A DNA stretch of 64,000 bases from an uncultured Methanobacteriaceae archaeon (GCA_963825335.1 CAWGSP010000001.1:282292-346291), one strand, 5' to 3'; shown: positions 3,231 through 44,877, counted from the stretch's first letter. Made by a program: numbers and translations. The notes: generated by a model from the letters alone, not told the origin.

Positions 3231-3290
3231 GATCCACCCTGTATACTAAAAAATTTAGTTGATTTAAATTTAGATATTATTCTGCTAAAA

Positions 3291-3968: not shown

Positions 3969-4013
3969 GACTATGCTTCCTTATGAAAAAATAAATAAAA
4001 AAATAAAAAATTC

Positions 4014-4277
4014 TTAATTATCAGATAGGTAATTATCTATTTCTTTTATTGCATGATCTGCAGCTTCAGCTGCAATATCATTCTCATGTTTGGACAGGGG
4101 ATCAAATTGGATGTCAACATCCACATCAACATCCAGTCCTTCATGATAATCAAGTTCAACCTTGATATCCAAATTAACAATCTCTTTTTTGGAGACTTTT
4201 GAGTAAATGAAATTCTCAGCAGCTTTAACTGCTATTTCTGAGATATCATCCAATTCTTCATCAGAAAGTTTTCTCAA
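4014..4277 (-). CDS. small acidic conserved archaeal protein (DUF3194-like)
   Basis: 87-aa ORF that overlaps the prefoldin beta stop by 4 nt. Its position in the superoperon is conserved in Methanobacteriales, from memory. Confidence 0.5.
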   Translation of the reverse strand: MRKLSDEELDDISEIAVKAAENFIYSKVSKKEIVNLDIKVELDYHEGLDVDVDVDIQFDPLSKHENDIAAEAADHAIKEIDNYLSDN

Positions 4278-11238: not shown

Positions 11239-11635
11239 TTTCTAGTGCCACCTTTTTCTTCGCTGGATATGCTGCTATTTTAATTTTCAAATGGATAGAA
11301 TCGCCGTGATCTACTATTTTCAGATCACCTAAATAGGCTCTCTGTTTATCAAATCTTAAAAATAAATTTCCAGAATCGTCCATTTTATTTTCCAACTGAT
11401 GTAAAGCTTTTTTTTTAGCAGGATCTTTCAGTGTGGAAATTTTTTTAACAAAATCCTTGATTTCATTTTTTTCATCGATTTTGTTGCTTAAAATCAGAAC
11501 AGGATTATTGTAATAGCCCTCAGTAGATTCACATTGAGGTGAAGAATTTGGAAAAAGTGTTTTAATTGATTGTAACACTTTTTCCTTATTTTCAGTTCCA
11601 TAAACAAATGCTCTGTATGAAATGTTATGGATCAA
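11216..11635 (-). CDS. conserved archaeal RNA-binding protein (COG1931-like)
   Basis: 139-aa ORF with a TTG start 2 nt after the L15e stop. It sits between L15e and Rpp30, as in the described archaeal superoperon. Confidence 0.6.
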   Translation of the reverse strand: MIHNISYRAFVYGTENKEKVLQSIKTLFPNSSPQCESTEGYYNNPVLILSNKIDEKNEIKDFVKKISTLKDPAKKKALHQLENKMDDSGNLFLRFDKQRAYLGDLKIVDHGDSIHLKIKIAAYPAKKKVALEIARKLFE

Positions 11636-11637
11636 TC

Positions 11638-12183
11638 TTATCTTACCTTCTCTGCCCCTTTACCTTTGCCACGTAGGCCCCTATTTTTCCGACCTTCACT
11701 GGTGAGACCTCGGAACACTCTGTTTGTATGCTGTTTCTCACAGATCCAGTTGATCTTAGGATCATTTTTAATTGAAGGATGATTAGGGTCTACAAGAATT
11801 ACTTCGTAGAATTTGAATTTTCCATCTTCCCATAGCCAGTATGAGTTTAAAATCTCGAGATTTGGGAATTTTCGAGCTACTCTTTCCTCTGCTATTCTCT
11901 GGATAGATTTTTTCATGGTGATCTTTTTGACACCCATTCTTTTTGGTTTTCGACCTGCTGTAAATCTAGATTTACGCAGTCCACCCCTACGAACACGGGT
12001 TCTCACAACTACATAGCCTTGTTTGGCTTTGTAACCTAGTGATCTTGCCCTGTCGATCCTGGTTGGTCGTTCAACTCTTACTATAACATTTTCTCTTCTC
12101 CATACTGGAGCTCTCTTCTGCATGAGTTCCTTAACATATGATTTAGAAGGATTTTTCCATGCATCTCTTATATATTTATACAT
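11638..12183 (-). CDS. rpl15e: 50S ribosomal protein L15e
   Basis: [15 protein letters not shown]-terminus. I use the internal ATG at 12183. The 29 codons upstream in the ORF track are not L15e-like. Confidence 0.93.
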
Positions 12184-12417
12184 TAAAACACCTCTTTTGT
12201 TCAGCTTGCGCCACATCCATGGGATTGTCTCCCAAAAAAAGTTGTATATAACTTCAATGTAAGCAATCAAGTTTTATTTAATAGATTTTAATCACCAAAT
12301 TGGCGGTAATAAGTGTTGATCAACTTCCTTTAAAAAGCTTGCTATCACGATGTTGATTTTTCATCGTATTTTTTTTATTTGACAAACGATCTCAAAAAAA
12401 TAGAATGATTTAAAGAA

Positions 12418-29534: not shown

Positions 29535-29936
29535 TCAAGGCGGTGTGAGAAGTTCTGCAGCCACCATTCTACAAATATCCGTTTTTGTAATAACACCAAC
29601 TGGTATATTGTCTTCTACAACAAGAAGCCCTGAAATATCCGCCCGTATCATTAAATTGGCAGCATCTTCGATCCCACTAAATATATCTATGGTCATTACA
29701 TTGTCGGACATTATGTCAGATATTTTGATGGATGACATATCTTTGTTGGTGGGTCTTAGACTTCCCAGCACTCCTATGAGATCAGAGTATGAAACCACCC
29801 CCATAGGGTTTCTATCATCATCCAATACGAATAATCTGCGTACACCCTCCTTATACATCTTCTCAAAAGCATCTAAAGGCTTAATTTCGGGATCAACGGT
29901 TAGGACACCCTTATTCATGGCTTCTTTCACTTTCAT
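29535..29936 (-). CDS. CBS-domain pair protein
   Basis: Two CBS repeats (MNKGVLTV..., IMSDNVMTI...). Confidence 0.85.
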   Translation of the reverse strand: MKVKEAMNKGVLTVDPEIKPLDAFEKMYKEGVRRLFVLDDDRNPMGVVSYSDLIGVLGSLRPTNKDMSSIKISDIMSDNVMTIDIFSGIEDAANLMIRADISGLLVVEDNIPVGVITKTDICRMVAAELLTPP

Positions 29937-30291
29937 TCTACCTCTCCAATATAAATTGAATGAATCATTACCTAGAATTACTATACATTAGTTAATTTTT
30001 AAGATGATTAATAATTATTGGTATGCGATTTTAATATTTTTTATAAAAGTTAAATGAAAAATTATTATACTAGTTTTTTACATGTGAGTATGTGAACTCG
30101 ATAAAATAATGAATATAATAGTAAAAAGTATTAACTATTAATTATTAATATATATGCATATACGACTACGTACTATTTGATTCATATTATGAGTATATTG
30201 TTCGGTTTTGAACAATTTTTCATTTGAAGGAAATATTTAAATAGTGCTAAAATTAGTATTATGGTATTATAATTGGGGAGGGAATAAAGTG

Positions 30292-30702
30292 ATGCGAATT
30301 AGTATGTCATTGCCTAAAAAGTTATTAAGTGATTTTGACGATGTATTAAAAGATAGAGGTTATCAATCTAGATCCAAGGGGATAAGAGATGCTTTAAAAG
30401 ATTATATCGTGAGATATCAATGGATGAATGAAATGGAAGGCGAGAGAATAGGTATCCTCGCAGTAATATACGACCACCATTACACAGGTGTGATGGAAGA
30501 TTTAACAGATATACAGCACGATTTTAGAGATTATATAAATGCTGTAATGCACGTACACATGACAGAAAAATACTGTCTGGAAGTCGTGGTTGTTAAAGGT
30601 GATGTTAAATATATACGTGACTTAACCGAGAAAATCATGAGATTAAAGGGCGTTGAACACGTCAAACTCACCAGTACAGCAAGTGGCGAAAAGATCGATT
30701 AA
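30292..30702 (+). CDS. nikR: nickel-responsive transcriptional regulator NikR
   Basis: MRISMSLP ribbon-helix-helix N-terminus and a C-terminal His-rich metal-binding domain (HH...H.H). The ATG at 30292 follows GGGGAGGG. Confidence 0.9.
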   Translation: MRISMSLPKKLLSDFDDVLKDRGYQSRSKGIRDALKDYIVRYQWMNEMEGERIGILAVIYDHHYTGVMEDLTDIQHDFRDYINAVMHVHMTEKYCLEVVVVKGDVKYIRDLTEKIMRLKGVEHVKLTSTASGEKID

Positions 30703-30848
30703 TTAATATCATGAGTTCACGGGCTATAGGACTGAAAAAAACTTTTATATGATGTTTCTGAGATTCCAATTTTATGAATCATACAACGATCTCTATGAAG
30801 GTGCAATAAACGTCCTATCACCAAAACCTCACATCTGACTATGCAAGA

Positions 30849-31574
30849 TTGGCCGGATTTTATGAAGTTATTTTAAACAAAGCAAGGGGAACTGTATTTG
30901 ATTTAGGGACTGGTTCCGGAATTTTGACGGAATTTGCTTCCCCCCATGCTGATACTATTTATGCAGTTGAAATAAATAAATCCGTTGCAAAGATTACCAA
31001 AACTAAACTCAAACACCTTAAAAATGTTTTTGTTTTGTGTGGTGATGCCAGTAAAATTACTTTTTCTAAAAAGGCCGATATTATCATCTGCGAAATGCTT
31101 GATACTGCACTCATTGATGAAGAACAAATTCCGGTTCTGAATCATGCAAGAAAATTTCTAAAAACCAGTGGAGAAATTATTCCGTGCGGAATAATTAACT
31201 GTGTTGAACCTGTACAGGTGGGAACAGAAACCATATGCTACGAGGAGAATGGCAGCCCCCAAAACGAAGTCTTGGGAATCCCAATATTTTATAGTAAAAT
31301 TAATTTTACTGACAAAACTGATGAAAACTTCGAAAAAACTATTGATATAAAAATAAATAAAGAAGGAATAGTTTCAGGAATAAAAATTACTACATTCACA
31401 TTATTATCAAAGAATATAATTTGCGGACCCACGCCCATGTTAAATTCTCCGCTTATCATTCCACTAAAAAAATTAAAAGTTGGCAAGGGTGACGAACTGA
31501 AGTTAGATCTGAGTTATAAAATGGGTGGGGGTTTGGAGAGTGTTAGAGCAGGAATTAAAAAAGTTCACAGATAA
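30849..31574 (+). CDS. class I SAM-dependent methyltransferase (PRMT-like core); the N-terminus is probably incomplete as drawn
   Basis: Motif I is VFDLGTGSGIL and motif post-I is AVE. The ORF-track start is a TTG only 16 residues before motif I. See the finding on the upstream region. Confidence 0.75.
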   Translation: MAGFYEVILNKARGTVFDLGTGSGILTEFASPHADTIYAVEINKSVAKITKTKLKHLKNVFVLCGDASKITFSKKADIIICEMLDTALIDEEQIPVLNHARKFLKTSGEIIPCGIINCVEPVQVGTETICYEENGSPQNEVLGIPIFYSKINFTDKTDENFEKTIDIKINKEGIVSGIKITTFTLLSKNIICGPTPMLNSPLIIPLKKLKVGKGDELKLDLSYKMGGGLESVRAGIKKVHR

Positions 31575-32013
31575 TTATGATAAGATCCTATTTTTATGTA
31601 TAGGAAATGATATGCGTGGAGACGACGCTGTAGGTCCTTTGCTTGCAAAAAAACTGACCGAAATATTCAGAGAAAACAGTCAAATTACTGTTTTGAATGC
31701 TAAAACTGTCCCAGAAAACTTCACAGGACTCATCAAAAGAGAGAATCCGTCCCATTTAATATTATTAGATGCTGTTGAAATGAACAAAAATCCAGGACAC
31801 ATCAAACTGGTCCAAAAAGATGAAATAGTGAATTACAGCATATCAACACATGCAATGCCAGTATCATTTCTTATCAAATATTTGGAAACGAGTATGGATG
31901 CAAAGATGCTTTTAATCGGGATACAACCTAAAAATATGGAGATGAATGCTCCAGTATCAAAGGAAGTGGAAAGTAGCATCAATAAACTGTCAAACATAAT
32001 GAGTATGCTATGA
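31525..32013 (+). CDS. hydrogenase maturation endopeptidase (HycI/FrhD-like)
   Basis: LCIGNDMRGDDAVGP signature. A GTG at 31540 after GGTGGGGG is an alternative start. Confidence 0.85.
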   Translation: MGVWRVLEQELKKFTDNYDKILFLCIGNDMRGDDAVGPLLAKKLTEIFRENSQITVLNAKTVPENFTGLIKRENPSHLILLDAVEMNKNPGHIKLVQKDEIVNYSISTHAMPVSFLIKYLETSMDAKMLLIGIQPKNMEMNAPVSKEVESSINKLSNIMSML

Positions 32014-32308
32014 TTTTGTAAATAAAATTGTTCAACAACATATCTTCATGAATATGATTAACTTTAACCCGAATATCAACAATAAAATCGATGCGGATCA
32101 CGTATCAAAATATTCTTTGGTAATTAATACTAAAAAATAGCACATATCCTGCCAGAAATAATTATCAAAGAAGTTCTGTTTTTAATAAATGATCTCATAT
32201 AAATAAAATGCAAATATACTAAAATAATATTAAGATAAAAACCATCCTAGTGCATATCAGTTTGTTACATATTTTAATTTAAAGGTTTTATAGCCAATTA
32301 GTGATAAT

Positions 32309-33448
32309 ATGAAGATACTATTTATAGGAGCCCGTCTATTTGATGATGTTGCCCTCTACACAGCAAAAAATTCTATTACAAGTATTTTAACCGAGTCTAA
32401 CCACCAATCACCCAATTTAGACCTTGCAAATTCTCATTATTTAGTTTCGAGAGGTATGAAAGAGCCTATGAGAATCGCAATTGAAGAGGATGTAGACGGT
32501 GTCGTGCCACTGATAGGTATTGATGGACCCCTTGTTGAAGTGGCTGAGATGAAAGAAAAACTCGAAGAAGATCATGGCATACCAGTAGCAGCATCAGGAA
32601 TTTCTGCAGCCACCATATGTGGTAATAAACAAAAAACAAAGGAATTTTTCGTAAAAAATCGGATAAAAACCCCTGATTTCTTTAAAATAACCCATAATAA
32701 TAATAAAATAAGTCCCACTATAGATCCCAACCAACTACCATTGGTTTTAAAACAATCCCAAGGACAGGGAGGATCCGGGATAAAAATTGCTACAACCCCG
32801 TTAGATATTGAGGAATACTTCGAAAAATTTGATTCAGCCTTCGCCGAGCAATTTATTAAGGGATTTGAAGTTTCTATTGAGATTTTGAGATGGAATGGAG
32901 AATCCGTTCCACTGGTTCCCGTATGCAAGGGTGAAACAACAATCGAAGGGACACATCCGCTGAAAAAAATAAAAAAAGCCCCTTTAAATATTGATAACGT
33001 TGAAAACATTATCAACAATCAAAAAATACGTGAAATTGCCGTTAAAATTGCAGAAACACTAAATTTAGAAGGTTGTGCAGACATAGATATGATATTTGAC
33101 CCTGAAACCGGGCAAAATAATGTTATCGAAATCAACACAAGACCCAGCGGCACGAGATACATAACAGCTGCAGCTACAGGTGTCAATATTCTGCAAGAAC
33201 TGATTAACATGGCATCGGGACAATGGAATGCACAAATGCTAAAGAATAATATAAAAGATTATTCTGCTATTGAAATACCAGTTGGAAGTTATCCCTCAAA
33301 TAAAAATAACTATAAATACAGAGAATTTTCCGAAGCTAACCATTGGATCATCCACGGGCCCAAAAATTACGAACGCATCACCATACGCGGTAACACCAAT
33401 AAAGAAGTTATTAAAACCGCTGAAAAATTAGGTGTTTTGAATAAATAA
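32309..33448 (+). CDS. ATP-grasp enzyme (carbamoyl-phosphate-synthase-like / D-Ala-D-Ala-ligase-like fold) of the pseudomurein cluster
   Basis: ATP-grasp layout (KQKTKEFF..., EQFIKG.E.S.E, IEINTRPSG). Co-oriented with the MraY-like and Mur-like genes. Confidence 0.75.
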   Translation: MKILFIGARLFDDVALYTAKNSITSILTESNHQSPNLDLANSHYLVSRGMKEPMRIAIEEDVDGVVPLIGIDGPLVEVAEMKEKLEEDHGIPVAASGISAATICGNKQKTKEFFVKNRIKTPDFFKITHNNNKISPTIDPNQLPLVLKQSQGQGGSGIKIATTPLDIEEYFEKFDSAFAEQFIKGFEVSIEILRWNGESVPLVPVCKGETTIEGTHPLKKIKKAPLNIDNVENIINNQKIREIAVKIAETLNLEGCADIDMIFDPETGQNNVIEINTRPSGTRYITAAATGVNILQELINMASGQWNAQMLKNNIKDYSAIEIPVGSYPSNKNNYKYREFSEANHWIIHGPKNYERITIRGNTNKEVIKTAEKLGVLNK

Positions 33449-33582
33449 CTATGATATTGATCAAACAAAAAAATTAAATAGAAATGAACAAAAACATTTA
33501 GTAACTACAAATCCTAGATGTAATATCTCATTTACGTTAATCAATAATAATTTTCCAAATAAACAAATTTATAGGTGGTATA

Positions 33583-34656
33583 TTGAGCAATTTTCAAGTA
33601 GAAATTTTCATATTCATACTAACATTCATATCAACTGCCTTTTTCACTTGGTTTGTGATGAAGTGGTTGAAATATGCCGACGTTAAAGACCATCCAATAG
33701 TAACGGAACACAGTCACAAAGCAGGCACACCAACAATGGGTGGACTGGCAATACTAATGGGAGTTCTGCTCATTGCATGTGTTTACTACTCTGATAAAGA
33801 CCTGATTTTAACCGTGATGATCATGTTGACTGCAGGGATAGTTGGTTTGATGGATGATCTGATAGGATTAAAAACCAAGGTAATACAGAAGGTTATTCGA
33901 AATATCAGCCCCAACCCAGTCGAAATTGGCAGATTAACCCTAAAAACCGGCGAGAATGCGAGGGTTACTACACCCAAAGCTAAAAAAGACCTAGAATCTC
34001 TTTTGAAGAATAATCTGGTTGAAATTACCGGTGAGGCACCTATAAAAAGTGAAGTTAAAGAAAATGAAAAAATTCTGGCTCAAATATTAGTTTCGCTATT
34101 TCTGATAGCATCGGGTGCTGTTGGTTCGACTTTACTGGGATTTAATCTTGGAATATTCATTATACCTGTGATAATATTTGGAATAGTCGGTTCTATAAAC
34201 GCTGTAAATCTCATAGACGGAATGGATGGACTTGCAGCAGGAATAATCGCCATAGCTTCCATAGCGTCTGCACTGTTCTCCATCTCGATAGGTAACATCG
34301 GTGGATCACTGGCTTTTCTTGCAATTGGTGGAGTATGCATAGGATTTCTTGTTTGGAATAGGTACCCTGCACGTATATTTATGGGAGATACAGGTTCTTT
34401 CGCACTTGGAGCAGGTTATATTACAGCAGCTTTCTTGGGAAATGTAACACTCTTTGCTGTGATAGCAATAGCCGTTCCAATAATATCTGTTATAGTGAGC
34501 CTTCTTCACAGAGCCCACATAATAAAATTACCAGTGGAACCACTACACCATACCCTCAACTACAGAGGATTATCAGAAAAGAAGATCATCTCGATCTACT
34601 GGGGGATCACGTTAATAGTGTGTGTAGCTGCATTCTACTTATTCCACGCATTTTAA
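33583..34656 (+). CDS. MraY/WecA-family polyprenyl-phosphate sugar-phosphate transferase (glycosyltransferase family 4)
   Basis: Multi-TM protein with MGGL, NLIDGMDGLA and MGDTGS motifs. It carries a hydrophilic insertion of about 70 aa (KTKVIQK...ENEKIL). Confidence 0.85.
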   Translation: MSNFQVEIFIFILTFISTAFFTWFVMKWLKYADVKDHPIVTEHSHKAGTPTMGGLAILMGVLLIACVYYSDKDLILTVMIMLTAGIVGLMDDLIGLKTKVIQKVIRNISPNPVEIGRLTLKTGENARVTTPKAKKDLESLLKNNLVEITGEAPIKSEVKENEKILAQILVSLFLIASGAVGSTLLGFNLGIFIIPVIIFGIVGSINAVNLIDGMDGLAAGIIAIASIASALFSISIGNIGGSLAFLAIGGVCIGFLVWNRYPARIFMGDTGSFALGAGYITAAFLGNVTLFAVIAIAVPIISVIVSLLHRAHIIKLPVEPLHHTLNYRGLSEKKIISIYWGITLIVCVAAFYLFHAF

Positions 34657-34691
34657 GACATTATTTATATTAATAAAAATTTGCAGTAACG

Positions 34692-36170
34692 GTGAAAATC
34701 ATGGAGATCACAACATCCTGTTTGGCCAAAGAGGTTGAAGGAGTATTAATAGGACCCGAAAAACCTATAAAAGGTATTTTTACATTTCTTAACCAGGCTA
34801 AAGCCGGAGATGTTGTGATCAGACACTGGATAGATCCTAAAGGTGTTGAAATAGCTGTAAAAATTGGGATTTCTTGTCTTATTACACAAACACCCAAGGG
34901 TAATGCAACAGAAATAGCCGAAAAACATGATCTTCCAATCATAGTAACCAACAGAATAGAACTTGCCAATGCATTTGCAATTAAATGGGCGGTCAAAACA
35001 TTTGCCGAAAATTCGTTAAGAGTGGTGGTTACAGGCACCAACGGTAAATCCACCACAGCACATATGATCCATAACATAATCGATGCTGCGGGTTACAACA
35101 CATATACAAATACAGATGCTAAATCTGAATTCAACACATTGATCGATCCAGTTATAGCAAAACAAATAGCAGAATTTCAAGATGTGACCGGTGGGAAGAT
35201 CCAAAGCATGGTCATCGAAGTCTCCGAAGTTCAGGGCTGGCTCGATAAAATCATGAAGGACCATGCACAGCTGATGACATCGGCTGTAAACCCACAGATA
35301 ATCGTACTGACAAATGTATCTCTAGATCATATTGGTCTAGTAAACAACATCGAAGAAACATTTAACGAAATTTATGGAAGCGTAAAGGCTGTCCTATCCA
35401 GATCGAATTCTTCTAACAAAGTTCATGTGATCCTTAATTCAGATGATCCGCAATTAATGAAGATGGGAGAATTAATAGGTGAATACAAAAGTATTGAACT
35501 TATGTTCTACGGCACATATTTAAATGAAAATCATGACCCCGATCTCAAACTGGAATCTGATGGGATATATTATCAAGATAAACCATTTCTTAAAGCAGAT
35601 CAACTGCCATTCCAAAGTGTACACTTTCTACAAAATACAATGGCAGCAATAGGGGTAGGCCTTGTTTTAGGAGTTGATCCAGAAATAATAAAGAACACAA
35701 TTTCCTCGTACAAACCACTAGATAGAAGATTCTCAATACTCAGCACAGAACCTCTCATAATCGATGATTTTGCCCATAATCCCGAGGGCATAATCGCCAC
35801 CATAAACAGTGCAGCCAAAACAACCCAAGGAATTTTATACATAGTATATGCTATTAGAGGTTCAAGGGGCGAACCAATCAACCAGTTAAATACCGAAGCT
35901 GTTGTTAAAGGCCTTGAAGGTGTTGATTATATCTTAACAGTAACCAGCAGTGCAGATGTGGTGAATGATGCCAACGAAGTAACCCCCGAAGAAAAAAAAT
36001 TGGTGTTTGAAACACTGCAAAGGTTGGGTTTAAATTATTGTTTCCGCGAGGATTTACACAGTTCCTTGATCGGAATATTGAATTCAGCCGATAAAAATGA
36101 TACAATCCTTTTGATAGGTGCCCAGGGAATGGATCCTGCAAAGGATATTCTAAAGAATTTGTTGAATTAA
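34692..36170 (+). CDS. Mur-ligase-family peptide ligase (MurE/MurF-like domain order)
   Basis: P-loop VTGTNGKSTT, a central domain (NVSLDH) and a C-terminal domain (DDFAHNPEG). The probable start is the ATG at 34701 after GGTGA. Confidence 0.85.
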   Translation: MKIMEITTSCLAKEVEGVLIGPEKPIKGIFTFLNQAKAGDVVIRHWIDPKGVEIAVKIGISCLITQTPKGNATEIAEKHDLPIIVTNRIELANAFAIKWAVKTFAENSLRVVVTGTNGKSTTAHMIHNIIDAAGYNTYTNTDAKSEFNTLIDPVIAKQIAEFQDVTGGKIQSMVIEVSEVQGWLDKIMKDHAQLMTSAVNPQIIVLTNVSLDHIGLVNNIEETFNEIYGSVKAVLSRSNSSNKVHVILNSDDPQLMKMGELIGEYKSIELMFYGTYLNENHDPDLKLESDGIYYQDKPFLKADQLPFQSVHFLQNTMAAIGVGLVLGVDPEIIKNTISSYKPLDRRFSILSTEPLIIDDFAHNPEGIIATINSAAKTTQGILYIVYAIRGSRGEPINQLNTEAVVKGLEGVDYILTVTSSADVVNDANEVTPEEKKLVFETLQRLGLNYCFREDLHSSLIGILNSADKNDTILLIGAQGMDPAKDILKNLLN

Positions 36171-36398
36171 ACTGAAACAATGATTTCGATCTGTAAATAT
36201 TAAACTGAATCAAAATCAACACCTCTTTTTTAAAAAATTTAATTCAAATTTAAATTAAAATGATACAAAACAAGAATAATATCATATCAAAACATTCAAG
36301 TAAAACAACAAATGGGCACATAAATAAATAGAATCGATCATAATAAAGAACCTTTAATCAATGACATAAAAATTTAATAAAAATTTTGAGAAACTATT

Positions 36399-37802
36399 AT
36401 GAAATGCATAGTAATAGGCGCAGGTAACGCAGGACGGCCGGTTGCAAGGATATTAAACCACACTGGAAACAGTGTGAGCATCACGGACCAAAAAACCCTC
36501 GAAGAATTTCCACTTAGTGTGCAAGCTACCCTGAAAATTATGGAAAAAGAAGGTACGGAACTTTTATTGGGTTTAAACTCATTAGATGATTTGAAAAAAT
36601 TCGATAGAGTATATTTATCCCCAACATTACCTGAAAATTCCCAAATCAGGAAAGACATTGAATCGAATAATTTGGATATTATCAGCAACGAAGATGTATC
36701 GTGTGTGATTGATGACCTCCTTAAATTAGATATTATTGGGGTTACAGGAACTCTTGGTAAAACAAGTACCACACACATAGTTTCAGAAATCTTCAAAACT
36801 GCGGGTTACAAGGTTTGGACATGCTCTTCACGGATGGGAAACCTATTAAGCGAAGTTATAGTAGATGGAATTGTCAAAGGACTAAACCAAGTAAATGATA
36901 TAGCCATACTAGAACTTCCACATGGTACATCCAGACTGATATCGAAGGTCAATCTTAAGATCGGAATAATAACAAACATCTATCCAGATCATCTAGACGA
37001 ATTTGACTATTCAATGGAAAAATATATAGCACGGAAAATGTTCATTGCAGAATCAAGCGAGATTCTGATTTCAGGAATGCAGTGTAAGGAACATATCGAA
37101 AAGAAGAGAGATGATGCTGTTTATTACTGTACCCAAGGCGATTGCGATATCATTGGGGAACTAGAAAATGGAATGCTGAGCATTGTATACAATGTACCCT
37201 CGCGGAAAATTAAAGGGATGTTTAAAGCTCCATTCAAATTAAGAGGATATTACTATGAAAATTCTCTCGCAGCAGCAGCAGCAGCATTGGCATATGGATT
37301 AGATGCAAATTCAATTATAAATGGATTAAACAAATTCAAAGGAATTTCAGGCCATATGGAATATATTGGGAATATTAAGGGGAGAGAAGTACATTTTGAT
37401 GCGGCGTTTGTGCCTGCAGGATTAATTAACACACTTGAAAGTTTTGAAAGCCAAGATTTAATAGTCATCATCGACAACCCCGACAGCACCAATCCCCGAG
37501 ACAAGTACGAAGTAGGGAAAGTTGTTGGTAAATATGCTAAGGTCATGATATGCAGTGGATACAATGAAACAACCAAAAAATTAGACATGACCGCTGCTGA
37601 TGAAGTTGTTAAAGGTGCTGAAGACTCAAAAGCGCTTAAAATTCCCGTTGAGAATATGGTTATTGCTGGTGAATTGTCTATAAAACATTCAAATCCTGGC
37701 AACACTATTCTGCATGTTGGGCCTGGAGCAATAACCAACTACGAAGATGTGAAGCATAAAATGATCATTGGTATTGAAAATGGGTGTAAAAAATATGAAT
37801 AA
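36399..37802 (+). CDS. Mur-ligase-family peptide ligase with a MurD-like Rossmann N-terminus
   Basis: [14 protein letters not shown]-terminus, [12 protein letters not shown]-loop, and NIYPDHLD. Confidence 0.85.
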
Positions 37803-39360
37803 GCTCAGATCAGACATTAACAAACCCCAAACAGAAATTTTAAGGTATGGTACCTACGGTGTGATAGGCATATGCGGTATAGTTGGTAATTTGGTTGCAA
37901 GGATGATCAATGATCATGGATGTGATGTAATTGGCACAGACTCAAAAAGAGAAGAGGAATGCGAATTTAAATATACCCTCGATGATTATGATTTTCCAAT
38001 ATACTTGTCAAGCCATCCTGAATTTTTTTTTGAAGAATCTGACATCATAATCCCGCCACCAAGCCTCAAAGAAAATTCAGATCTTTACAAAAAAATAGTG
38101 TTGAGTGGGAAGAAAATTTTGGGAGTTGAAGATTGTCTGAAACTATTCAAACCAAAAAAACCAGTTGTATGCATAACAGGGACTAACGGTAAAACAACCA
38201 CCACTTCACTTTTAAAACATATATGCCGTGGTGTGGGTTTGAAACCAACCGAACATTCCTTCAAAAATTTACAGGGAAATATAGATTATATACCACCTCT
38301 TCAAGCCAGACTTCGTGGAGATGTAGCTGTTCTTGAAACAGGCACATTTGGAAAAATAGGCGATCTTAAACGGATGATAGAACGCTCTGAGCCAGATTAC
38401 GGTATTTTGACTAATATAACTCCGGATCACCTCAATAATGAACATGACTTCATGAGTTATGCCAGTATAAAGGGAGAATTTGTTAAATATTTCAAAAGTA
38501 AGCCGTTAATAATAAATTCAGACGACCCAACGGTGTTTAGTTTGGTTAATGCCCATGATCATCTGGGTAAGGTTGTAACTTTTGGTGTTGATTCGAAAAC
38601 AACAAATACTGCCGATAAAATTTGTTGGTGTGGGAACAGCATCCTCATCGAAGAAACTATCTCTGGTTCTGGTTATTATGAGTGTGAATGTGGTTTGACA
38701 AGGCCTCAGCCAGATTATTTAGCATTTGAGATAGATGAATCCCATGGAAACTTCAAACTTCAAACACCGAAAGATTGTGTAGACGTGCAAACTAATCTAG
38801 TCGGTCTTCATAATGTTTATAATGTTATTGGTGCAATCGCAGCATCTAAAGAATTCTTCAAAATACCATTAGGACAAGTAATCGATGCAGTTAAAACTTT
38901 TGAAGGTGTGCCTGGGAGAATGGAACATATGTACAATCACGATGGTATAGACATTATCATCGATTATGGACACAATCCTGCAGGTATACAGACAGTTTTA
39001 AGAGAACTTAAAAAAGTTTACGATAACATCGTCGTTGTTATAACGGTATCATCAGAATCTGGTGAGACAGGAGACATCGAAATACTAAAAAATGCCCATA
39101 AAATAGCAGATTTCATAGTTCCTGCATCATATTCATCTAGATTAGCCGTTGAAAATAGTGAATACAAGTTTTCAGATAGGATAATCCTAACAAATAAGTC
39201 ACCAATGAAATTTAAAGAAGGAACATTGGGGGCAACCCCTGAACAGGTCATAGAAGGACTAAAAAAAGGATTAGAATGCGATACTGATGCAGTAATATGT
39301 TTGGGTGAAGCAGCATTTAAATATAAAGAATATATACTCAAATTGAGAGAATGTAAGTAA
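37795..39360 (+). CDS. Mur-ligase-family peptide ligase with a CxC...CxC insertion
   Basis: [12 protein letters not shown]-loop, NITPDHL, and DYGHNPAG. The ATG at 37795 overlaps the upstream stop (ATGAATAA). The ORF track starts 27 nt earlier. Confidence 0.85.
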
Positions 39361-39493
39361 TGTGATAAAAAATTCAAATTTTATATTACCTAGATCAAGT
39401 ATTAATTAGATCAAGAACAATGATAATAAGATCAAATTATTATTCAACATAAATATTATAAGTGCATAGTTCAATGCACTAAGTGGTGAAAGA

Positions 39494-39934
39494 ATGTTCA
39501 TAAAAATTAGGCGAGATACATTAATCATTTTAATACTGGCATTTATGCTCATCCTATCTGGAAGAGTGATGACCTATATGTCATATGCATCATCTACTAC
39601 TATAGAAGAAGGAGTTCCGATTTCTGGTGTTATGGTAACTGGAAATGATATAATTCCTACAGATTCTATAAGAGCAAGTTTATCTGCTGTAGGATTTCGA
39701 TCTGGAAGTTTTATTAAGGGAGACACACTTGTAACTACTAAACGCATGGTACCCCTGTCGCAAGCGATTGTAAATGCCCAACAGGCAGCTATGCTTACTA
39801 CAATCCCGGGAACACAGATCACACCAATTGTTGCAGCAAATGTCCAAGTTAATCAACAAACTGGATTAGTTACTGTAAACGTTATCGAAGATTTCAACAA
39901 TGTCACAATTTCAGGAGTGAATGGTACGCTATGA
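39494..39934 (+). CDS. membrane-anchored uncharacterised protein
   Basis: The ATG follows GTGGTGA. It has a single N-terminal hydrophobic segment, then a T/V/I-rich, beta-rich sequence. Its stop overlaps the next start (ATGA). Confidence 0.65.
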   Translation: MFIKIRRDTLIILILAFMLILSGRVMTYMSYASSTTIEEGVPISGVMVTGNDIIPTDSIRASLSAVGFRSGSFIKGDTLVTTKRMVPLSQAIVNAQQAAMLTTIPGTQITPIVAANVQVNQQTGLVTVNVIEDFNNVTISGVNGTL

Positions 39935-41202
39935 AAAAACCAAACGTAATGCGGTTGTTGATGTTTTTAATAACCATCACACTGTTTATCAACACAGCAT
40001 CTGCTACAATGAATGTGGTGATAATAACAGACCCTACAGGAAAGGACCCGAATGGAGCAGCAGCTGCTAGTATTTCTTGGGCAGAAAACATGTTCCAGTC
40101 AACATTTATCTATTCAAAGGTAAATCATTTCTGCGTATTATCAGGTGGAGAAGGTAACGAAACAGGAAGACTTGAATCAATAGTGCAAACTCTGAAATTG
40201 CTTGAAAATGGAGCTACTCCAGCTGTTGCTTCTGCAGCTGCAGATTCTTATAGTGGTGAAAGGGTCATGGTGGGCTCACCAACAGAGGGCGCTGCTGTGT
40301 CTGGTTCGTTTACTGCAGATCTGGTAATAGTATCAGATAACGGAACCATAACCATAACTCCAATGTCTACAACTACTGGTGGTACTTTAACACTGCCCGC
40401 CGGAGATAAAGGTGCTTTAATTCACCTGCGAAACACTCCAGGTAACCCACAATACGGAACAGCTGATGCAGTTCGTCTGCAACTTGCTGAAATGATTGGA
40501 GAGATGATCAGGGACGGTTATCCTGCCACCTATATTTTGGGTCAGGTAGTTAAATACGAAGCTATAAATGCTGGTGAAAAACATGGGGGTGGTGCTTTGA
40601 ACCTTGTATCTGGTATCTCAACAGGAGATATGTTCACGCCCGTAGCCCTGAACACTACGGGTTTCCCAATGGATCAACCCTACAGTAAAGTTGCTGAAGA
40701 TGGAGATTGGAGTATTGGTTACCCTGATGCTGAAAACTACCAAGTAAGCCCGATCGATGGTAGCCCTCTGACAACAGTGTATGCATGGCAAGCAATGGAA
40801 AGTGCTATAACCGTGACTAGCAACGTAACAAATGTAGCAGTTTATGGAAGTGTTGCACCGGGTATTGATGAAACAACAGAAGAGATAGTACAGGAATCAG
40901 TCCTAAAACATGGCCTCAGCTCAACATCTATTGCAAAGGATATTAACTCTGCGATAAGCAGTGGATTGATTATTGGAGTTAATTATGTAGAACCAGACAA
41001 TATAAACGTTGTTCCAAATGAAAATGCCGTAGGGGTTTACTTTTCATCACTAACGGACAGTAGATCTGCCCCACCATGGAACATACCGATAAGTTCTTCG
41101 ATTCTATATCTATTAGGAAGTATGCAGACCGCGATAGGATTGATATTAATTATTCTAATCCTTTTCAGAAGTACTTTGATCAAGTCATTCATGAAAAGAT
41201 GA
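39931..41202 (+). CDS. exported uncharacterised protein with an N-terminal signal sequence and a C-terminal TM anchor
   Basis: MKKPNVMRLLMFLITITLFINTASA signal-like N-terminus. The last ~35 aa are hydrophobic, followed by basic residues. No family recognised. Confidence 0.7.
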   Translation: MKKPNVMRLLMFLITITLFINTASATMNVVIITDPTGKDPNGAAAASISWAENMFQSTFIYSKVNHFCVLSGGEGNETGRLESIVQTLKLLENGATPAVASAAADSYSGERVMVGSPTEGAAVSGSFTADLVIVSDNGTITITPMSTTTGGTLTLPAGDKGALIHLRNTPGNPQYGTADAVRLQLAEMIGEMIRDGYPATYILGQVVKYEAINAGEKHGGGALNLVSGISTGDMFTPVALNTTGFPMDQPYSKVAEDGDWSIGYPDAENYQVSPIDGSPLTTVYAWQAMESAITVTSNVTNVAVYGSVAPGIDETTEEIVQESVLKHGLSSTSIAKDINSAISSGLIIGVNYVEPDNINVVPNENAVGVYFSSLTDSRSAPPWNIPISSSILYLLGSMQTAIGLILIILILFRSTLIKSFMKR

Positions 41203-41324
41203 ATAGAACTAATAAATCCGATCGAAATATATTAAAAGGGATTTTATGGTTTTACCATTTAATCCCCTAATTATTTATTTTTAAATGTCCGATAATAAAT
41301 TGTTATACTAAAGGAGTAAAAAAT

Positions 41325-41681
41325 ATGGCTTTAATTTTAATTCGTGCAGAAGATTCTGTAAAACTGTTAAATACCATAGCAGATATCGAGAGGCATGCTG
41401 GACTCAATGTATCTGGAAAACCTAGGTTGATAAGATCAAAAAATGCCGATGAAATTGCGGGTAAAATATTGAAACAAAGTTTACGATCAAAATCTGATAT
41501 TGCAGTTCTTGTTCGCGTTGATGAAAATACAACCAAAAGTATACTGAATATAAGAAAAATACATCCACCCGCACATGTTATAGTAATTAGTGAAGAATAT
41601 AGTGAATTTAAGGATTTAGAAAAGAAATTTCATACATTACCCTACCTGAAAGGTTATTATTCCCATAAAAATAAGGATTAG
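41325..41681 (+). CDS. hypothetical protein
   Basis: 118-aa ORF with AAGGAG 8 nt upstream of the ATG. Confidence 0.55.
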   Translation: MALILIRAEDSVKLLNTIADIERHAGLNVSGKPRLIRSKNADEIAGKILKQSLRSKSDIAVLVRVDENTTKSILNIRKIHPPAHVIVISEEYSEFKDLEKKFHTLPYLKGYYSHKNKD

Positions 41682-41731
41682 TTTTGGTTAAAAAAAATTG
41701 ATTTTAAGATGGTTATAAATATTCCATCTTA

Positions 41732-42208
41732 TCAATTCTTTTTAATTCGTGCAATATCACCAATGGTAGCTCCTTTTGAATTTGAGTGGCCAATTTCCTC
41801 TGCAGTTACATTATCTGTTTTTTCTATTAATATCAAATCCATAATCTTCTCAAGTTTTTTTGCAAGCTTTATATCTGGTATCATTTTACCAGACTCTATT
41901 CTACTGACTACAGATGCCTTTTCATATATCTTTGCTGCGAGTTCTTCACGAGACCATCCCTTTTTCTCCCTTGCTTGCCTAACCAGATCATTCACATTCT
42001 CAACAACCTCTTCTGAAGGTTCTCTTGGTCTTTGAATTCTCCTAGATCCCCTCGAAGCTCTTGGTGCCCCTGATCTTTGGGGCTTTGGGGGTTCTCTTTG
42101 TATTTTACCAAATTTTGAGCATTCTTTACAAGTAATCATGATTGAACCATCTATTTTAGTCTTTATTGGTTCTTCTACTAATTTTTTTCCACATATCTCG
42201 CATCTCAT
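41732..42208 (-). CDS. archaeal multiprotein-bridging factor 1 (zinc ribbon + HTH)
   Basis: N-terminal CEICG...CKEC ribbon, a basic linker, and a C-terminal XRE-type HTH. Confidence 0.85.
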   Translation of the reverse strand: MRCEICGKKLVEEPIKTKIDGSIMITCKECSKFGKIQREPPKPQRSGAPRASRGSRRIQRPREPSEEVVENVNDLVRQAREKKGWSREELAAKIYEKASVVSRIESGKMIPDIKLAKKLEKIMDLILIEKTDNVTAEEIGHSNSKGATIGDIARIKKN

Positions 42209-42771
42209 TGACGATCCCCTTACTCTGTATTCATTATATAATCTCTACCCTCATATTTAAATATTATCAGAGGTTTTTTTTAGAGAAAACTTTTCGAGTT
42301 TTTCATCTAGTTTCATCAAGATAATCGATACACATGACTTTATTTTTCATTTATGTTCAATCAGTTACTAAGTGAACAGTTAATTCTCTAACATGATACA
42401 GAGGGGATTTTTATAATTGTAAAGTTGATGTTCACATATGCTTTTTCTAAACAATAAAATTCAAAATAATCATTAAAACATGATTTATATCGATTACATT
42501 GTTTCTGAAGTTTCTTAAGTGATAATTTTGATTTGTAGCATATTAGATGGTTTTCTTTTGCAAAATTATAAACCATCCATACAGACATTTTAACATCATT
42601 TTATGGTGTTTACCATTTTTATTGTTAAATTAGCCCATTAAATCACGAGGCTTGATCAGCTCTTCTCATACAAAATTTATTTTAGGGTGATCTTATATAA
42701 CAGACAAAATTATAAAAGAAATAACAAGTTAGTAAATCACGCTTAAAAAAAAATTTAGAGAGTCAAATATA

Positions 42772-43077
42772 ATGAATCACAAAATTATTTTAATAATAGG
42801 AATTTGTATATTAGTTGTCATTTTAGGAGATTTAGGCTCCATTTTACTGAGTACAGGTAACGTAAAACCTAATATCACGATTGTTAATAATAGTACTCCG
42901 GTAAATTATACAACTGCATCTTCAACAATTTCAACAACAAATGCTCAAACTTCGCAAAACACAACAAATCCAACCAATGAGTCAACCCAATCATCATCCA
43001 GCAACAGCCAAAATTCCGGTTACAACGATACAGATCAGGCAGTACAAAATAAAAACAATGCTAACATTACACAATAA
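42772..43077 (+). CDS. small secreted or membrane-anchored low-complexity (T/S/N/Q-rich) protein
   Basis: N-terminal TM segment IILIIGICILVVIL, followed by low-complexity sequence. The SD is weak. Confidence 0.4.
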   Translation: MNHKIILIIGICILVVILGDLGSILLSTGNVKPNITIVNNSTPVNYTTASSTISTTNAQTSQNTTNPTNESTQSSSSNSQNSGYNDTDQAVQNKNNANITQ

Positions 43078-43644
43078 AATTCACCATTCTATCCCCAATT
43101 CTCCATTTTATTTCAAATCGTAATGAAGATTATTTAACAGAGAATTCTACGAAATTTTGAGACTTTGTGAATTCTGATAGTACTGTAGGAACATATTATA
43201 TGGATCCAATTGATTATTAAAACAGTCAGATTTTGATGGCCGATATTTACTAGGACAAAATAATAAACACAACATAGATCGTGAATTTTTATTGTTACCT
43301 CCTTTTGTCATTCACCCAGATCATTAACTGATTCGAAGATAATTTGTTATTTGTTTGTTTGAATTATTTTGATGGTAACTATGTGAAGTTTAGTTGATTG
43401 TTAGTGTAAATTTCTTCTAAACCACATTGGTCTGGTCATATTTGTATCCGACTTCACAAATTAATACGAATCAAATCTTATTATTTTAATATGGTGATGG
43501 CTTAGATTTGTTAACAGAAGATAATTTCACGATCCACAAATCTTTAAATATTATTAAAGACAATAAATTCAATTAATAATATCGGAAATCAAGAATCAAA
43601 ATTATTTTTTTTAATAAAATAAAGATTAGGAGTGAGCGAGGATC

Positions 43645-44877
43645 ATGGAAAACATGTCCCCAAATATATTGAAAAAATTTGAAGACCTTAAAACGGAGAT
43701 AAAAATCCTTAAAGAGGACAATACTAAAACTAAACGTAACCTTATGTGGAAGGTTCGAAAACTCGAAAAAGACAAGGTTTTGATCGAAAATGAAAAGATG
43801 AGGTTGGATAGGGAAGTTAAATCTTTAAGAGGAGAAATTGAACGATTCAGATCGCCTCCACTCGTAATTGCTACGGTAACAGAAGTTTTAGATGACGGTA
43901 GGGTTGTTGTTAAAAGTAGTACAGGCCCAAATTTTGTAATTGGTTATTCACGATTCTTAGATGAAAAATCACTTGAACCAGGTGTTCGTGTGGCCCTTAA
44001 TCAGCAGACATTTAGTATAGTACATGTTTTGCCATCAGAAAAAGACCCTCTTGTCACGGGTATGGAAGTCGATGAAAAACCGGACGTTGCTTACGAACAA
44101 ATTGGCGGTCTTGAAGATCAGGTTGTTGAAATAAAAGAGACAGTTGAACTGCCTCTTAAAAAACCCGAACTCTTTATAAATATTGGAATAGAACCACCTA
44201 AAGGTGTACTTCTTTATGGGCCTCCAGGAACTGGTAAAACTTTATTAGCTAAGGCAGTTGCACACGAAACAAATGCAACATTTATCAAGATAGTGGCATC
44301 AGAATTCGTTAAAAAATATATAGGAGAAGGTGCACGTCTTGTCAGGGGAGTTTTCGAACTTGCAAAAGAAAAATCACCGAGTATCATATTCATCGATGAA
44401 ATTGATGCTATAGCTGCAAAAAGGCTTAAGAGTTCCACTAGTGGTGACAGAGAAGTTCAAAGAACTTTAATGCAATTACTCGCTGAAATGGATGGTTTTG
44501 AAGGGCGTGGTGATGTTGGTATAGTAGCAGCTACCAACAGACCAGACATACTTGACCCGGCTCTTTTAAGACCAGGACGTTTCGATAGATTCATCGAAGT
44601 TCCTATTCCAAATGAAGACGGTAGGACCGAGATATTAAAGATCCATACCCGGAAAATGTCTTTGGAAGAAGAGATGGATATAAGGCTCATTGCTTCACTT
44701 TCAGAAGGAGCTTCTGGTGCCGACCTCAAAGCAATATGCACCGAAGCCGGAATGTTTGCGATTAGGGAAGAACGATCTACCGTTACTATGAATGATTTCA
44801 TGGATGCTGTGGACAAAATTGTTGGAATGGAACACGACGAAGAAATGAAAAAAGAAGCCGGAGTGATGTTCGGATAA
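43645..44877 (+). CDS. pan: proteasome-activating nucleotidase
   Basis: Coiled-coil N-terminus, OB domain, and an AAA module ([12 protein letters not shown]). The size is typical of PAN. Confidence 0.93.

Follow-up and report, generated by a model that had tools for sequence, protein, structure and literature searches.

Mfer763 and Mfer764 of the pseudomurein gene cluster: a candidate Ntn-type enzyme and its putative POTRA-like partner in an uncultured Methanobacteriaceae archaeon

A stretch of 64,000 nt from an uncultured Methanobacteriaceae archaeon (GCA_963825335.1 CAWGSP010000001.1:282292-346291, one strand), referred to here as the window, carries a pseudomurein gene cluster followed by two overlapping open reading frames, ORF1 and ORF2, which encode membrane proteins of the Mfer763 and Mfer764 families. 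Since the early 1990s, when the pathway was put forward, the extracytoplasmic steps of pseudomurein synthesis, namely polymerisation of the glycan and cross-linking of the peptides, have to our knowledge gained no enzyme with an experimental assignment. An original prediction, made from the DNA alone, held that the two proteins were of unknown family and were candidates for an undescribed extracellular module of pseudomurein assembly or cross-linking. The candidate status of the pair for pseudomurein assembly is already in print. What is new here is a fold-level, falsifiable mechanism, in which ORF2 is predicted to be a threonine N-terminal nucleophile (Thr-Ntn) enzyme and ORF1 its POTRA-like partner.

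The gene pair and its place in the pseudomurein cluster

The boundaries and lengths of both ORFs, their overlap by ATGA, their hydrophobic anchors, and the signal-like N-terminus and basic C-terminus of ORF2 were all confirmed. The two genes and the regions of their products are listed below with the basis of each assignment, where AF2 denotes an AlphaFold2 model.

39494-39934, + strand: ORF1, Mfer763-family bitopic membrane protein, 146 aa, ATG start (NCBIfam NF053641, AF2)
39512-39595, + strand: predicted transmembrane helix of ORF1, residues 7-34, with the cytoplasmic tail MFIKIRRDT (AF2, hydropathy)
39620-39892, + strand: predicted external POTRA-like domain of ORF1, residues ~43-133 (AF2, Foldseek, profile match)
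39931-41202, + strand: ORF2, Mfer764-family type I membrane protein, 423 aa, ATG start (NCBIfam NF053642, AF2)
39931-40005, + strand: predicted signal peptide of ORF2, residues 1-25, ending in A23-S24-A25 before T26 (hydropathy; (V/A/S)-x-A site)
40006-40008, + strand: codon of Thr26, predicted first mature residue and candidate N-terminal nucleophile (conservation, AF2)
40006-40650, + strand: Ntn-hydrolase-like alpha-beta-beta-alpha core of ORF2, residues 26 to ~240 (AF2 secondary structure, Foldseek)
40690-40770, + strand: degenerate zinc-ribbon insert of ORF2, residues 254-280 (alignment)
40831-41085, + strand: C-terminal alpha/beta region of the ORF2 ectodomain, residues ~301-385 (AF2; predicted local distance difference test, pLDDT, ~70-90)
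41095-41199, + strand: C-terminal transmembrane helix of ORF2 (~389-413) and basic cytoplasmic tail (hydropathy, AF2, conservation)

The ATGA at 39931-39934 combines the TGA stop of ORF1 (39932-39934) with the ATG start of ORF2 (39931-39933). Each gene is preceded by a Shine-Dalgarno-like site, GGTGA (39485-39489) before ORF1 and GGAGTGA (39914-39920) before ORF2.

Gene families were assigned with Pfam (E <= 0.01 for window proteins) and with NCBIfam equivalog hidden Markov models (HMMs) at their curated cut-offs. ORF1 matched Mfer763_fam (NF053641) with 218 bits against a cut-off of 170 (E = 4.4e-65; residues 1-137 on model positions 1-137 of 137), ORF2 matched Mfer764_fam (NF053642) with 609.4 bits against a cut-off of 560 (E = 2.6e-183; residues 25-420 on model positions 1-393 of 393), and neither matched a Pfam family at the threshold used. 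Since both match curated equivalog HMMs, they are not chance ORFs, and the statement that they belong to no known family did not hold. The family names derive from genes of Methanothermus fervidus.

The ATP-grasp enzyme, the MraY-like transferase and the three Mur-type ligases that had been recognised upstream on the same strand were all found above their NCBIfam cut-offs.

32309-33448, + strand: ATP-grasp ligase, Ddl_archaea NF053643 (565.9 bits, cut-off 500; Pfam ATP-grasp domains)
33583-34656, + strand: MraY-family phospho-sugar-peptide transferase, MraY_archaea NF053644 (548 bits, cut-off 450; Pfam Glycos_transf_4 and MraY_sig1)
34692-36170, + strand: pMurE peptide ligase, NF053648 (682 bits, cut-off 600)
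36399-37802, + strand: pMurD1 peptide ligase, NF053646 (739 bits, cut-off 610)
37768-39360, + strand: pMurC peptide ligase, NF053645 (751 bits, cut-off 560)

The longest ORF of pMurC has a TTG start at 37768 and shares its first 35 nt with the end of pMurD1 (37768-37802); because the NCBIfam pMurC model begins at residue 30, the true start is probably downstream of this TTG.

The pMurC stop (39360) is followed by a 133-nt AT-rich spacer with a conserved promoter-like block before ORF1. Over 83 related loci, the stop of Mfer763 and the start of Mfer764 were mostly -14 to +12 nt apart (-4 in 11 loci); the median distance from the upstream ligase to Mfer763 was 88-148 nt, and the gap to pMurE was as short as 1-32 nt in Methanopyrus and some Methanobacteriaceae. 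The translational coupling that had been proposed between the pair and the Mur-ligase cluster holds for ORF1 and ORF2 with each other, but not for the ligase genes, which lie beyond the 133-nt spacer.

The pair has been described in two previous studies. Subedi et al. (2021) reported Mfer763 and Mfer764 as highly conserved proteins with transmembrane domains, the 'Con Pro' genes of Gene Cluster 2, always located downstream of pMurE and without homology to annotated proteins (PMC10117817). In the pangenomic study of Lupo et al. (2025), OG0001162, with a Sec signal peptide, and OG0001472, with one transmembrane segment, were placed in cluster A as 'devoid of known domains' (PMC11915815); OG0001472 is Mfer763 and OG0001162 is Mfer764, the same proteins as the window pair. 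Both studies considered the pair pseudomurein-specific, cluster-linked and of unknown function, its restriction to Methanobacteriales and Methanopyrales and its synteny were published there, and neither assigns it a fold or mechanism (PMC10117817, PMC11915815). No earlier POTRA, Ntn or other fold assignment for these pseudomurein proteins was found in the literature covered, subscription journals lying outside it. The proposal of a surface module stood insofar as the proteins are predicted to face outward, occur in pseudomurein lineages only and are syntenic with the cluster, but the pair is not undescribed, as both studies list it.

The distribution of the pair was followed in one genome per GTDB species, which gave 201 loci, and in a profile search of 1.84 billion representative proteins. 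Named homologues of both proteins came only from Methanobacterium, Methanobrevibacter, Methanothermobacter, other Methanobacteriaceae and Methanopyrus, and the best 80 of the 201 loci, from which synteny was read, all belonged to Methanobacteriota. The profile search returned 63 matches, of which two were full-length clusters (one of the Methanobacteria type, the other from Methanopyrus) and the others fragments or chimeras. No full-length relative was detected outside the pseudomurein archaea at HMMER sensitivity, in agreement with the phyletic pattern anticipated in the original prediction, and Mfer764 is, by its sequence, a tiny family without relatives detectable by HMMER. Six apparent domain fusions of Mfer764 (for example with a GpsA-like or radical-SAM-like tail) were discarded, as they look like chimeric or frameshifted metagenome calls.

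Mfer763 lay directly before Mfer764 in 80 of the 80 loci, with pMurE or pMurC upstream wherever the contig reached that far. The wider gene order was also shared by the Methanobacteriaceae (29535-44877 in the window, and the 80 loci): a CBS-domain gene (- strand), a NikR-like gene, a methyltransferase and a HycI-like protease precede the pseudomurein cluster, and DUF356, aMBF1 (- strand) and the PAN AAA ATPase follow it. Because this much larger neighbourhood is conserved as well, adjacency within the Methanobacteriaceae is weak evidence alone. Methanopyrus is the informative case, as the cluster is kept while the flanks are unrelated. The order in Methanopyrus kandleri is Mur ligase, ATP-grasp, MraY, pMurE, a 149-aa Mfer763 homologue (171.5 bits, also above the NF053641 cut-off) and a 416-aa Mfer764 homologue; the flanks are wholly different, with tRNA synthetases upstream and DUF555 and haem genes downstream. 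The expected association of the pair with MraY and the Mur-ligase cluster was therefore observed even in Methanopyrus. The genes pMurD1 and pMurC lie between pMurE and Mfer763 in only some lineages, that of the window included.

Predicted folds of the two proteins

The AF2 model of ORF2, calculated from 65 diverse homologues including Methanopyrus, had a mean pLDDT of 82.7 and a predicted template modelling (TM) score (pTM) of 0.65. The order of strands (b) and helices (a) after the signal peptide in the model, b-b-b-b-a-a-b(x6)-a-a-b, fits an Ntn-hydrolase alpha-beta-beta-alpha sandwich. Foldseek searches were carried out against the PDB and the top 50 matches were considered, with TM-scores normalised by target length. 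The seven best matches of ORF2 were all circularly permuted human Taspase1 (E = 1.9e-4 to 2.7e-3, prob 0.98-1.0, TM 0.33-0.40), followed by the DUF1028 protein 2imh (SPO2555; E = 6e-3, prob 0.99, TM 0.47-0.48) and, more weakly, by Anbu, HslV, the GlmS glutaminase domain and proteasome beta. Taken together, the leading Ntn matches spanned E = 2e-4 to 8e-3 with prob 0.98-1.0. The permuted Taspase1 construct places its beta-subunit ahead of the alpha-subunit, with T234, the nucleophile, as residue 2. Because the permutants lead the list and native-order asparaginase_2 entries are absent from the top 50, Mfer764 is suggested to be naturally 'nucleophile-first'.

The residue at position +1 after the (V/A/S)-x-A site was Thr in 216 of 216 scorable full-length homologues, and Thr26 opens strand 1 (residues 26-32) in the ORF2 model. 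The signal peptide is the least conserved part of the protein (majority frequency 0.45), save for the (V/A/S)-x-A site itself. An invariant +1 residue is unexpected in an ordinary secreted protein and is required by a Thr-Ntn enzyme exposed by signal peptidase. Only the signal peptide precedes Thr26 in ORF2, which has no internal pro-segment for autoproteolysis; this is a departure from the canonical Ntn families, not proof against the mechanism. The alignment also contains the invariant motifs TDPTGxDPNGAAA.S.S, LSGG, HLRN..NP.YGTA, MIRDG and GEKxGGG and many invariant Arg, Asn, Asp and Ser residues. Several of the invariant Arg could bind the carboxylates that are abundant in pseudomurein stems.

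The remainder of the ectodomain is less easily classified. The zinc-ribbon insert has four cysteines in Methanopyrus and Methanobrevibacter and two Cys and two Asp in many Methanobacterium, and the corresponding positions in the window protein are A255, G258, S273 and D276, while P274, G277 and W260 stay conserved. Weak zinc-ribbon Pfam matches were obtained in 19 of 65 Mfer764 homologues and not in the window protein. Since the cysteines number four, two or none by lineage, the insert is structural and not catalytic. The C-terminal region (residues ~301-385) had no specific fold match in Foldseek. The transmembrane helix that follows has the conserved residues G396, Q399, T400, A401, G403, L406 and R413, and the basic residues at or after it are R413, K418, K422 and R423. 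Anchoring as a lipoprotein or by PGF-CTERM was rejected, as the window protein has no lipobox Cys and no PGF motif, and so was an adhesin or S-layer repeat architecture. The structural search proposed with the original prediction instead yielded, in the model, an enzyme-like fold without repeats and with an invariant candidate nucleophile.

ORF1 was predicted to have its N-terminus inside and its C-terminus outside, because K4, R6 and R7 precede its single hydrophobic helix. Its AF2 model (121 input sequences, pLDDT 82.9) contains, in the ectodomain, b45-49, a56-65, a hairpin at 72-87, a88-100, b112-119 and b125-132, with pLDDT ~90. About 45 of the top 50 Foldseek matches were POTRA domains of BamA, TamA, CdiB or Omp85 (prob up to 0.89). 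The Mfer763 profile also matched POTRA2 of Haemophilus BamA with E = 1.8e-4 over 32 residues, the profile segment isGviikGndivptdsiranlanvGfrsGsyi being aligned with ISDVKIKGNSIIPTEALKQNLDANGFKVGDVL. The relation of ORF1 to POTRA domains may be either homology or convergence. The label 'FtsQ family member' was considered for ORF1 and rejected, as there was no FtsQ match and the C-terminal beta-domain is missing.

Proposed mechanism and alternatives

The following mechanism is proposed. Mfer764 would be exported by Sec and cut by signal peptidase after A25, exposing Thr26 as the first residue of an Ntn-hydrolase-type sandwich, with its free alpha-amino group serving to activate the side-chain hydroxyl. 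The nucleophile-half-first order matches that of permuted Taspase1, which would make autoproteolysis unnecessary. As Thr-Ntn enzymes do, Mfer764 would use this hydroxyl to attack a stem-peptide amide of pseudomurein and so give an acyl-enzyme, which could be resolved either by an amino group of a neighbouring stem, producing a cross-link by transpeptidation as in gamma-glutamyl transpeptidase, or by water, in which case the peptide would be trimmed. The C-terminal transmembrane helix would keep the active site near the membrane, where the lipid-linked precursors emerge. Mfer763, synthesised in a coupled manner with Mfer764, would probably pair with it through the very conserved membrane helices and serve as a scaffold or as a substrate- or partner-binding module. 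In the pathway of Hartmann and König, the terminal Ala is reportedly released on cross-linking and the acceptor is said to be the amino group of the gamma-linked Glu. The papers covered, PMC11915815 among them, describe only the composition of the stem and a Glu-Lys link.

The close spacing or overlap of the two genes in most of the 83 loci and the conservation of the membrane segments are consistent with such a complex. In ORF1, conservation peaks in the cytoplasmic tail and the transmembrane helix (majority frequency 0.93 and 0.82), and in ORF2 the transmembrane helix is as conserved as the core (0.76 vs 0.77). These patterns may point to specific contacts of the helices, mutual or with MraY or a flippase.

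The proteins are accordingly read as a dedicated extracytoplasmic, membrane-anchored pair of the pseudomurein pathway, with a Thr-Ntn enzyme that would act on stem peptides and is possibly a cross-linking transpeptidase; this reading of the models is put forward tentatively, at a little short of an even chance. Its components differ in strength. An Ntn-type fold for ORF2 and a POTRA-like ectodomain for ORF1 are both judged probable from the models, a catalytic role of Thr26 is slightly favoured, and whether Mfer764 acts on a pseudomurein peptide is evenly balanced. That it is specifically the cross-linking transpeptidase is doubtful. The most elaborate version, in which Mfer764 would be a naturally permuted Taspase-like Thr-Ntn cross-linker, unmasked by signal peptidase and complexed with an Mfer763 of FtsQ topology that perhaps arrived with bacterial mur genes, is rather unlikely. 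The analysis establishes the gene structure, the topology signals, the family membership, the restricted distribution, the synteny, the predicted folds and the invariant Thr at +1; from these we infer catalysis, the substrate, the complex and the preference for a transpeptidase over a hydrolase. Two considerations shape the reading, 1) the proposed chemistry is on amides, so that cross-linking fits and glycan polymerisation does not, and 2) the pair is universal and placed in a biosynthetic cluster, which favours a core step. For a role in assembly or cross-linking, as first suggested, the pair is a reasonable candidate.

Several results weigh against this reading. The TM-scores of the Ntn matches of ORF2, 0.33-0.48, are under the usual 0.5, with root-mean-square deviations of 5.7-10 A, and PP2C phosphatases, which are also alpha-beta-beta-alpha sandwiches, were matched at E = 0.016-0.05 (prob ~0.8, TM ~0.39-0.40). 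The ORF2 profile found nothing among the PDB sequences at E <= 10, and when 65 Mfer764 homologues were scanned with Pfam at E <= 10, weak zinc-ribbon hits were all that appeared among the families listed. In hhalign comparisons of ORF2 sub-alignments, of which none was significant, E was 0.24-0.32 with asparaginase_2 beta subunits, 0.13 with the DUF1028 N-terminus and 0.045 with asparaginase_2 alpha subunits, for which the reversed-sequence control gave 0.16; prob was <= 1.2% throughout these hhalign comparisons, and homology to Ntn families at the sequence level is not claimed. The EcAIII, ASRGL1 and glycosylasparaginase sequences used there may be inexact, and only the Taspase1 beta sequence was checked (100% vs PDB). 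The register of the alignments was sensible, if insignificant, with LSGGEG and two helices set against SxTGxGE and two helices, and GAIIHLRNT against GAVGALSGIKNP. For ORF1, the E-values of the POTRA matches in Foldseek were 0.07-1, Pfam POTRA (PF07244) was found in 1 of 46 Mfer763 members (E = 0.4), E. coli BamA scored ~10.5 bits with the Mfer763 profile, and E. coli FtsQ, searched with a sequence that may be inexact, gave no match in the hmmsearch with that profile. The synteny within the Methanobacteriaceae could reflect simple relatedness, as the whole neighbourhood from the CBS-domain gene to PAN is kept. Finally, other candidates for cross-linking have been published, namely transglutaminase-like proteins, which are postulated and not demonstrated (PMC10117817, PMC11915815); Lupo et al. 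(2025) favour exported proteins of this type (PMC11915815). The assertion that no cross-linking enzyme had been assigned was incomplete in this respect, but it stands in that none has been shown.

The alternative that survives best has the same fold and nucleophile in Mfer764 but makes it a hydrolase (carboxypeptidase, endopeptidase or autolysin) that would trim the terminal Ala or open existing cross-links to let in new material during growth and septation, with Mfer763 targeting or regulating it. Among the relatives of the best fold matches that have been characterised, most are hydrolases (Taspase1, isoaspartyl peptidases, HslV, the proteasome), the POTRA-bearing FtsQ and DivIB are division regulators or scaffolds and not enzymes, and the published transglutaminase-like candidates for cross-linking also favour it. 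However, the pair is single and universal and always lies within the MraY and ligase cluster, in Methanopyrus as in Methanobacteria, which is more typical of core synthesis than of accessory lysis, and Thr-Ntn enzymes such as gamma-glutamyl transpeptidase do transpeptidate. A hydrolase is considered unlikely.

A non-catalytic module is less probable still. The pair would then tether the membrane to the sacculus or organise the machinery of export and polymerisation (MraY, flippase, polymerase), and the Ntn-like fold would be an inactive relic. Such a role would suit the extreme conservation of both membrane helices and of the cytoplasmic tail of ORF1, which suggests specific membrane protein contacts, the nature of POTRA domains as protein- and peptide-binding modules, and the lack of a sequence-level match to any catalytic family. 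It is difficult to reconcile with a Thr that never varies at the predicted start of the mature protein and with the dense invariant polar and glycine motifs of the core (TDPTG.DPNG, LSGG, HLRN, MIRDG, GEK.GGG), which look like an active site.

It is very improbable that the pair stands outside pseudomurein chemistry, as a general factor of surface maturation or quality control or a PP2C-like metal-dependent hydrolase linked to the cluster by accident: the far larger conserved neighbourhood in Methanobacteriaceae, which makes adjacency weak evidence, and the PP2C folds among the structural matches of ORF2 are outweighed by the block of ligase, ATP-grasp, MraY, pMurE, Mfer763 and Mfer764 that Methanopyrus keeps while all flanks differ, by the occurrence of the family nowhere else among the 1.84 billion representatives, and by the absence of PP2C motifs, with the invariant N-terminal Thr left unexplained.

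The reading of Mfer764 as a Thr-Ntn enzyme with Mfer763 as its partner provides a concrete and cheap test, as it comes down to one residue (Thr26), an enzyme class with known covalent probes, and a defined partner. If it is true, the pair would represent a new way to build a cross-linked sacculus and a surface-exposed, lineage-specific target against rumen and gut methanogens. Were Mfer764 in fact the cross-linking transpeptidase of the most elaborate version, archaeal walls would be cross-linked by a third, independent catalytic solution beside penicillin-binding proteins (PBPs) and L,D-transpeptidases (Ldts), and warheads directed at Thr might inhibit methanogens specifically. The presence of a POTRA-like protein among archaeal mur genes would also bear on the extent to which bacterial dcw machinery was transferred.

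Upstream spacer, neighbouring genes and known systems

The spacer between pMurC and ORF1 contains two elements.

39391-39435, + strand: three AGATCAA-type direct repeats, candidate regulator site (exact-copy search, related loci)
39451-39493, + strand: promoter-like block and short leader, a putative promoter (conservation among loci)

In the 64-kb window, TAGATCAAG occurs exactly twice, at 39391 and 39407, 16 nt apart. A degenerate third copy, AAGATCAAA, is at 39427, and the TATA-like element of ORF1 lies downstream of all three. Repeats of the (A)AGATCA type recur at the equivalent place in related loci. The three copies may act as an operator through which the gene pair is regulated. The promoter-like block consists of the TATA-like AAATATTATAAG (39451-39462), a conserved CAATGCAC and the GGTGA at 39485-39489, and a 7-bp inverted repeat, AGTGCAT/ATGCACT, lies within it at 39461-39480. 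The block AAATATTATAAGTGCATAnTTCAATGCACTnAAAGGTGAAAGAATG was common to 12 loci with proteins just 63-69% identical, and the sequence farther upstream diverges. It looks like an archaeal TATA box with a start region and a Shine-Dalgarno site. Such a conserved block implies a separate transcription start for the pair in Methanobacterium, where a promoter of its own is probable. A sigma-70 and terminator scan was based on bacterial models and was uninformative for an archaeon. Phylogenetic footprinting for a pseudomurein regulon had failed in the study of Lupo et al. (2025; PMC11915815).

Downstream of Mfer764 on the same strand is a DUF356 gene (41325-41681, 118 aa, Pfam E = 1e-38), whose position was kept in nearly all Methanobacteriaceae loci examined and which is not adjacent in Methanopyrus. 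A 101-aa ORF at 42772-43077 has an N-terminal hydrophobic helix and a low-complexity tail rich in Ser, Thr, Asn and Gln. Its family matches were all weak and spurious, and it may encode a small surface protein or not be a gene. In the M. kandleri locus, a 369-aa polytopic membrane protein without a Pfam or NCBIfam family (11253-12362) starts 2 nt after the Mfer764 homologue. Neither the window nor the 80 Methanobacteriota loci contained a homologue of this protein, which probably corresponds to OG0000796 of Lupo et al. and could carry out a membrane step, for example as a flippase or polymerase. A 334-aa protein encoded directly upstream of the first Mur ligase in the same locus (3259-4263) has weak similarity to PP-loop ATPases (LarE, QueC and the WbuX N-acetyl-sugar amidotransferase; E = 5e-6 to 1e-4) and may belong to the cluster in the Methanopyrus lineage.

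The window pair shares with the published Mfer763 and Mfer764 the location after the pMur ligases and the signal peptide and transmembrane features. Nothing sets it apart in kind; in its genome pMurD1 and pMurC stand between pMurE and Mfer763, and its Mfer764 has lost the zinc-ribbon cysteines.

FtsQ and DivIB share the predicted topology of ORF1, in which the cytoplasmic tail is short and a single transmembrane helix leads to an external POTRA or POTRA-like beta-alpha-alpha-beta-beta domain. ORF1 also occupies the distal end of its mur gene cluster, a position comparable to that of ftsQ in the dcw cluster. Unlike FtsQ and DivIB, ORF1 ends ~13 residues past this domain, without the C-terminal FtsQ beta-domain, and unlike a typical POTRA domain it has a hairpin inserted between the two helices. 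FtsQ or DivIB structures were not among the top 50 Foldseek matches of ORF1, and Subedi et al. detected no FtsQ orthologue by PSI-BLAST (PMC10117817).

The asparaginase_2-type Ntn enzymes (Taspase1, EcAIII and glycosylasparaginase) resemble the Mfer764 model in the alpha-beta-beta-alpha sandwich and in a Thr that opens the first strand of the nucleophile half. The motifs are also alike (T-hhhhh-D..G-AAA-S-S, the SxxGxGE-like LSGGEG and a strand end of the HLRN/IKNP type), a resemblance that is not statistically significant. In contrast to their alpha-then-beta precursor, Mfer764 has the chain order of the engineered circular permutant, and its nucleophile is predicted to be freed by signal peptidase rather than by autoproteolysis. 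It is, moreover, extracytoplasmic and membrane-anchored, with an extra C-terminal region and the zinc-ribbon insert. DUF1028 (2imh) is a single-chain Ntn-fold family, as Mfer764 would be, and gave the best target-normalised TM-score; its Thr is beside the initiator Met, and its N-terminus, TFSILAHDPETGAIGGAAATGS, resembles TMNVVIITDPTGKDPNGAAAASIS of Mfer764, a similarity that was not significant by hhalign or BLASTP. DUF1028 differs from Mfer764 in being cytoplasmic and in lacking a membrane anchor.

Gamma-glutamyl transpeptidase, a Thr-Ntn enzyme that performs transpeptidation, offers a functional analogy only, being extracytoplasmic and transferring the acyl group of an acyl-enzyme to an amine. 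It was not among the fold matches listed for ORF2, no sequence relation was found and, unlike Mfer764, it is autoprocessed and differs in architecture. The PBPs, whose orthologues are absent from these archaea (PMC10117817), the Ldts and the postulated transglutaminases would share with Mfer764 a membrane-proximal, extracytoplasmic cross-linking reaction through an acyl-enzyme, with folds and nucleophiles that are unrelated to those of Mfer764, Ser in the PBPs and Cys in the Ldts and transglutaminases.

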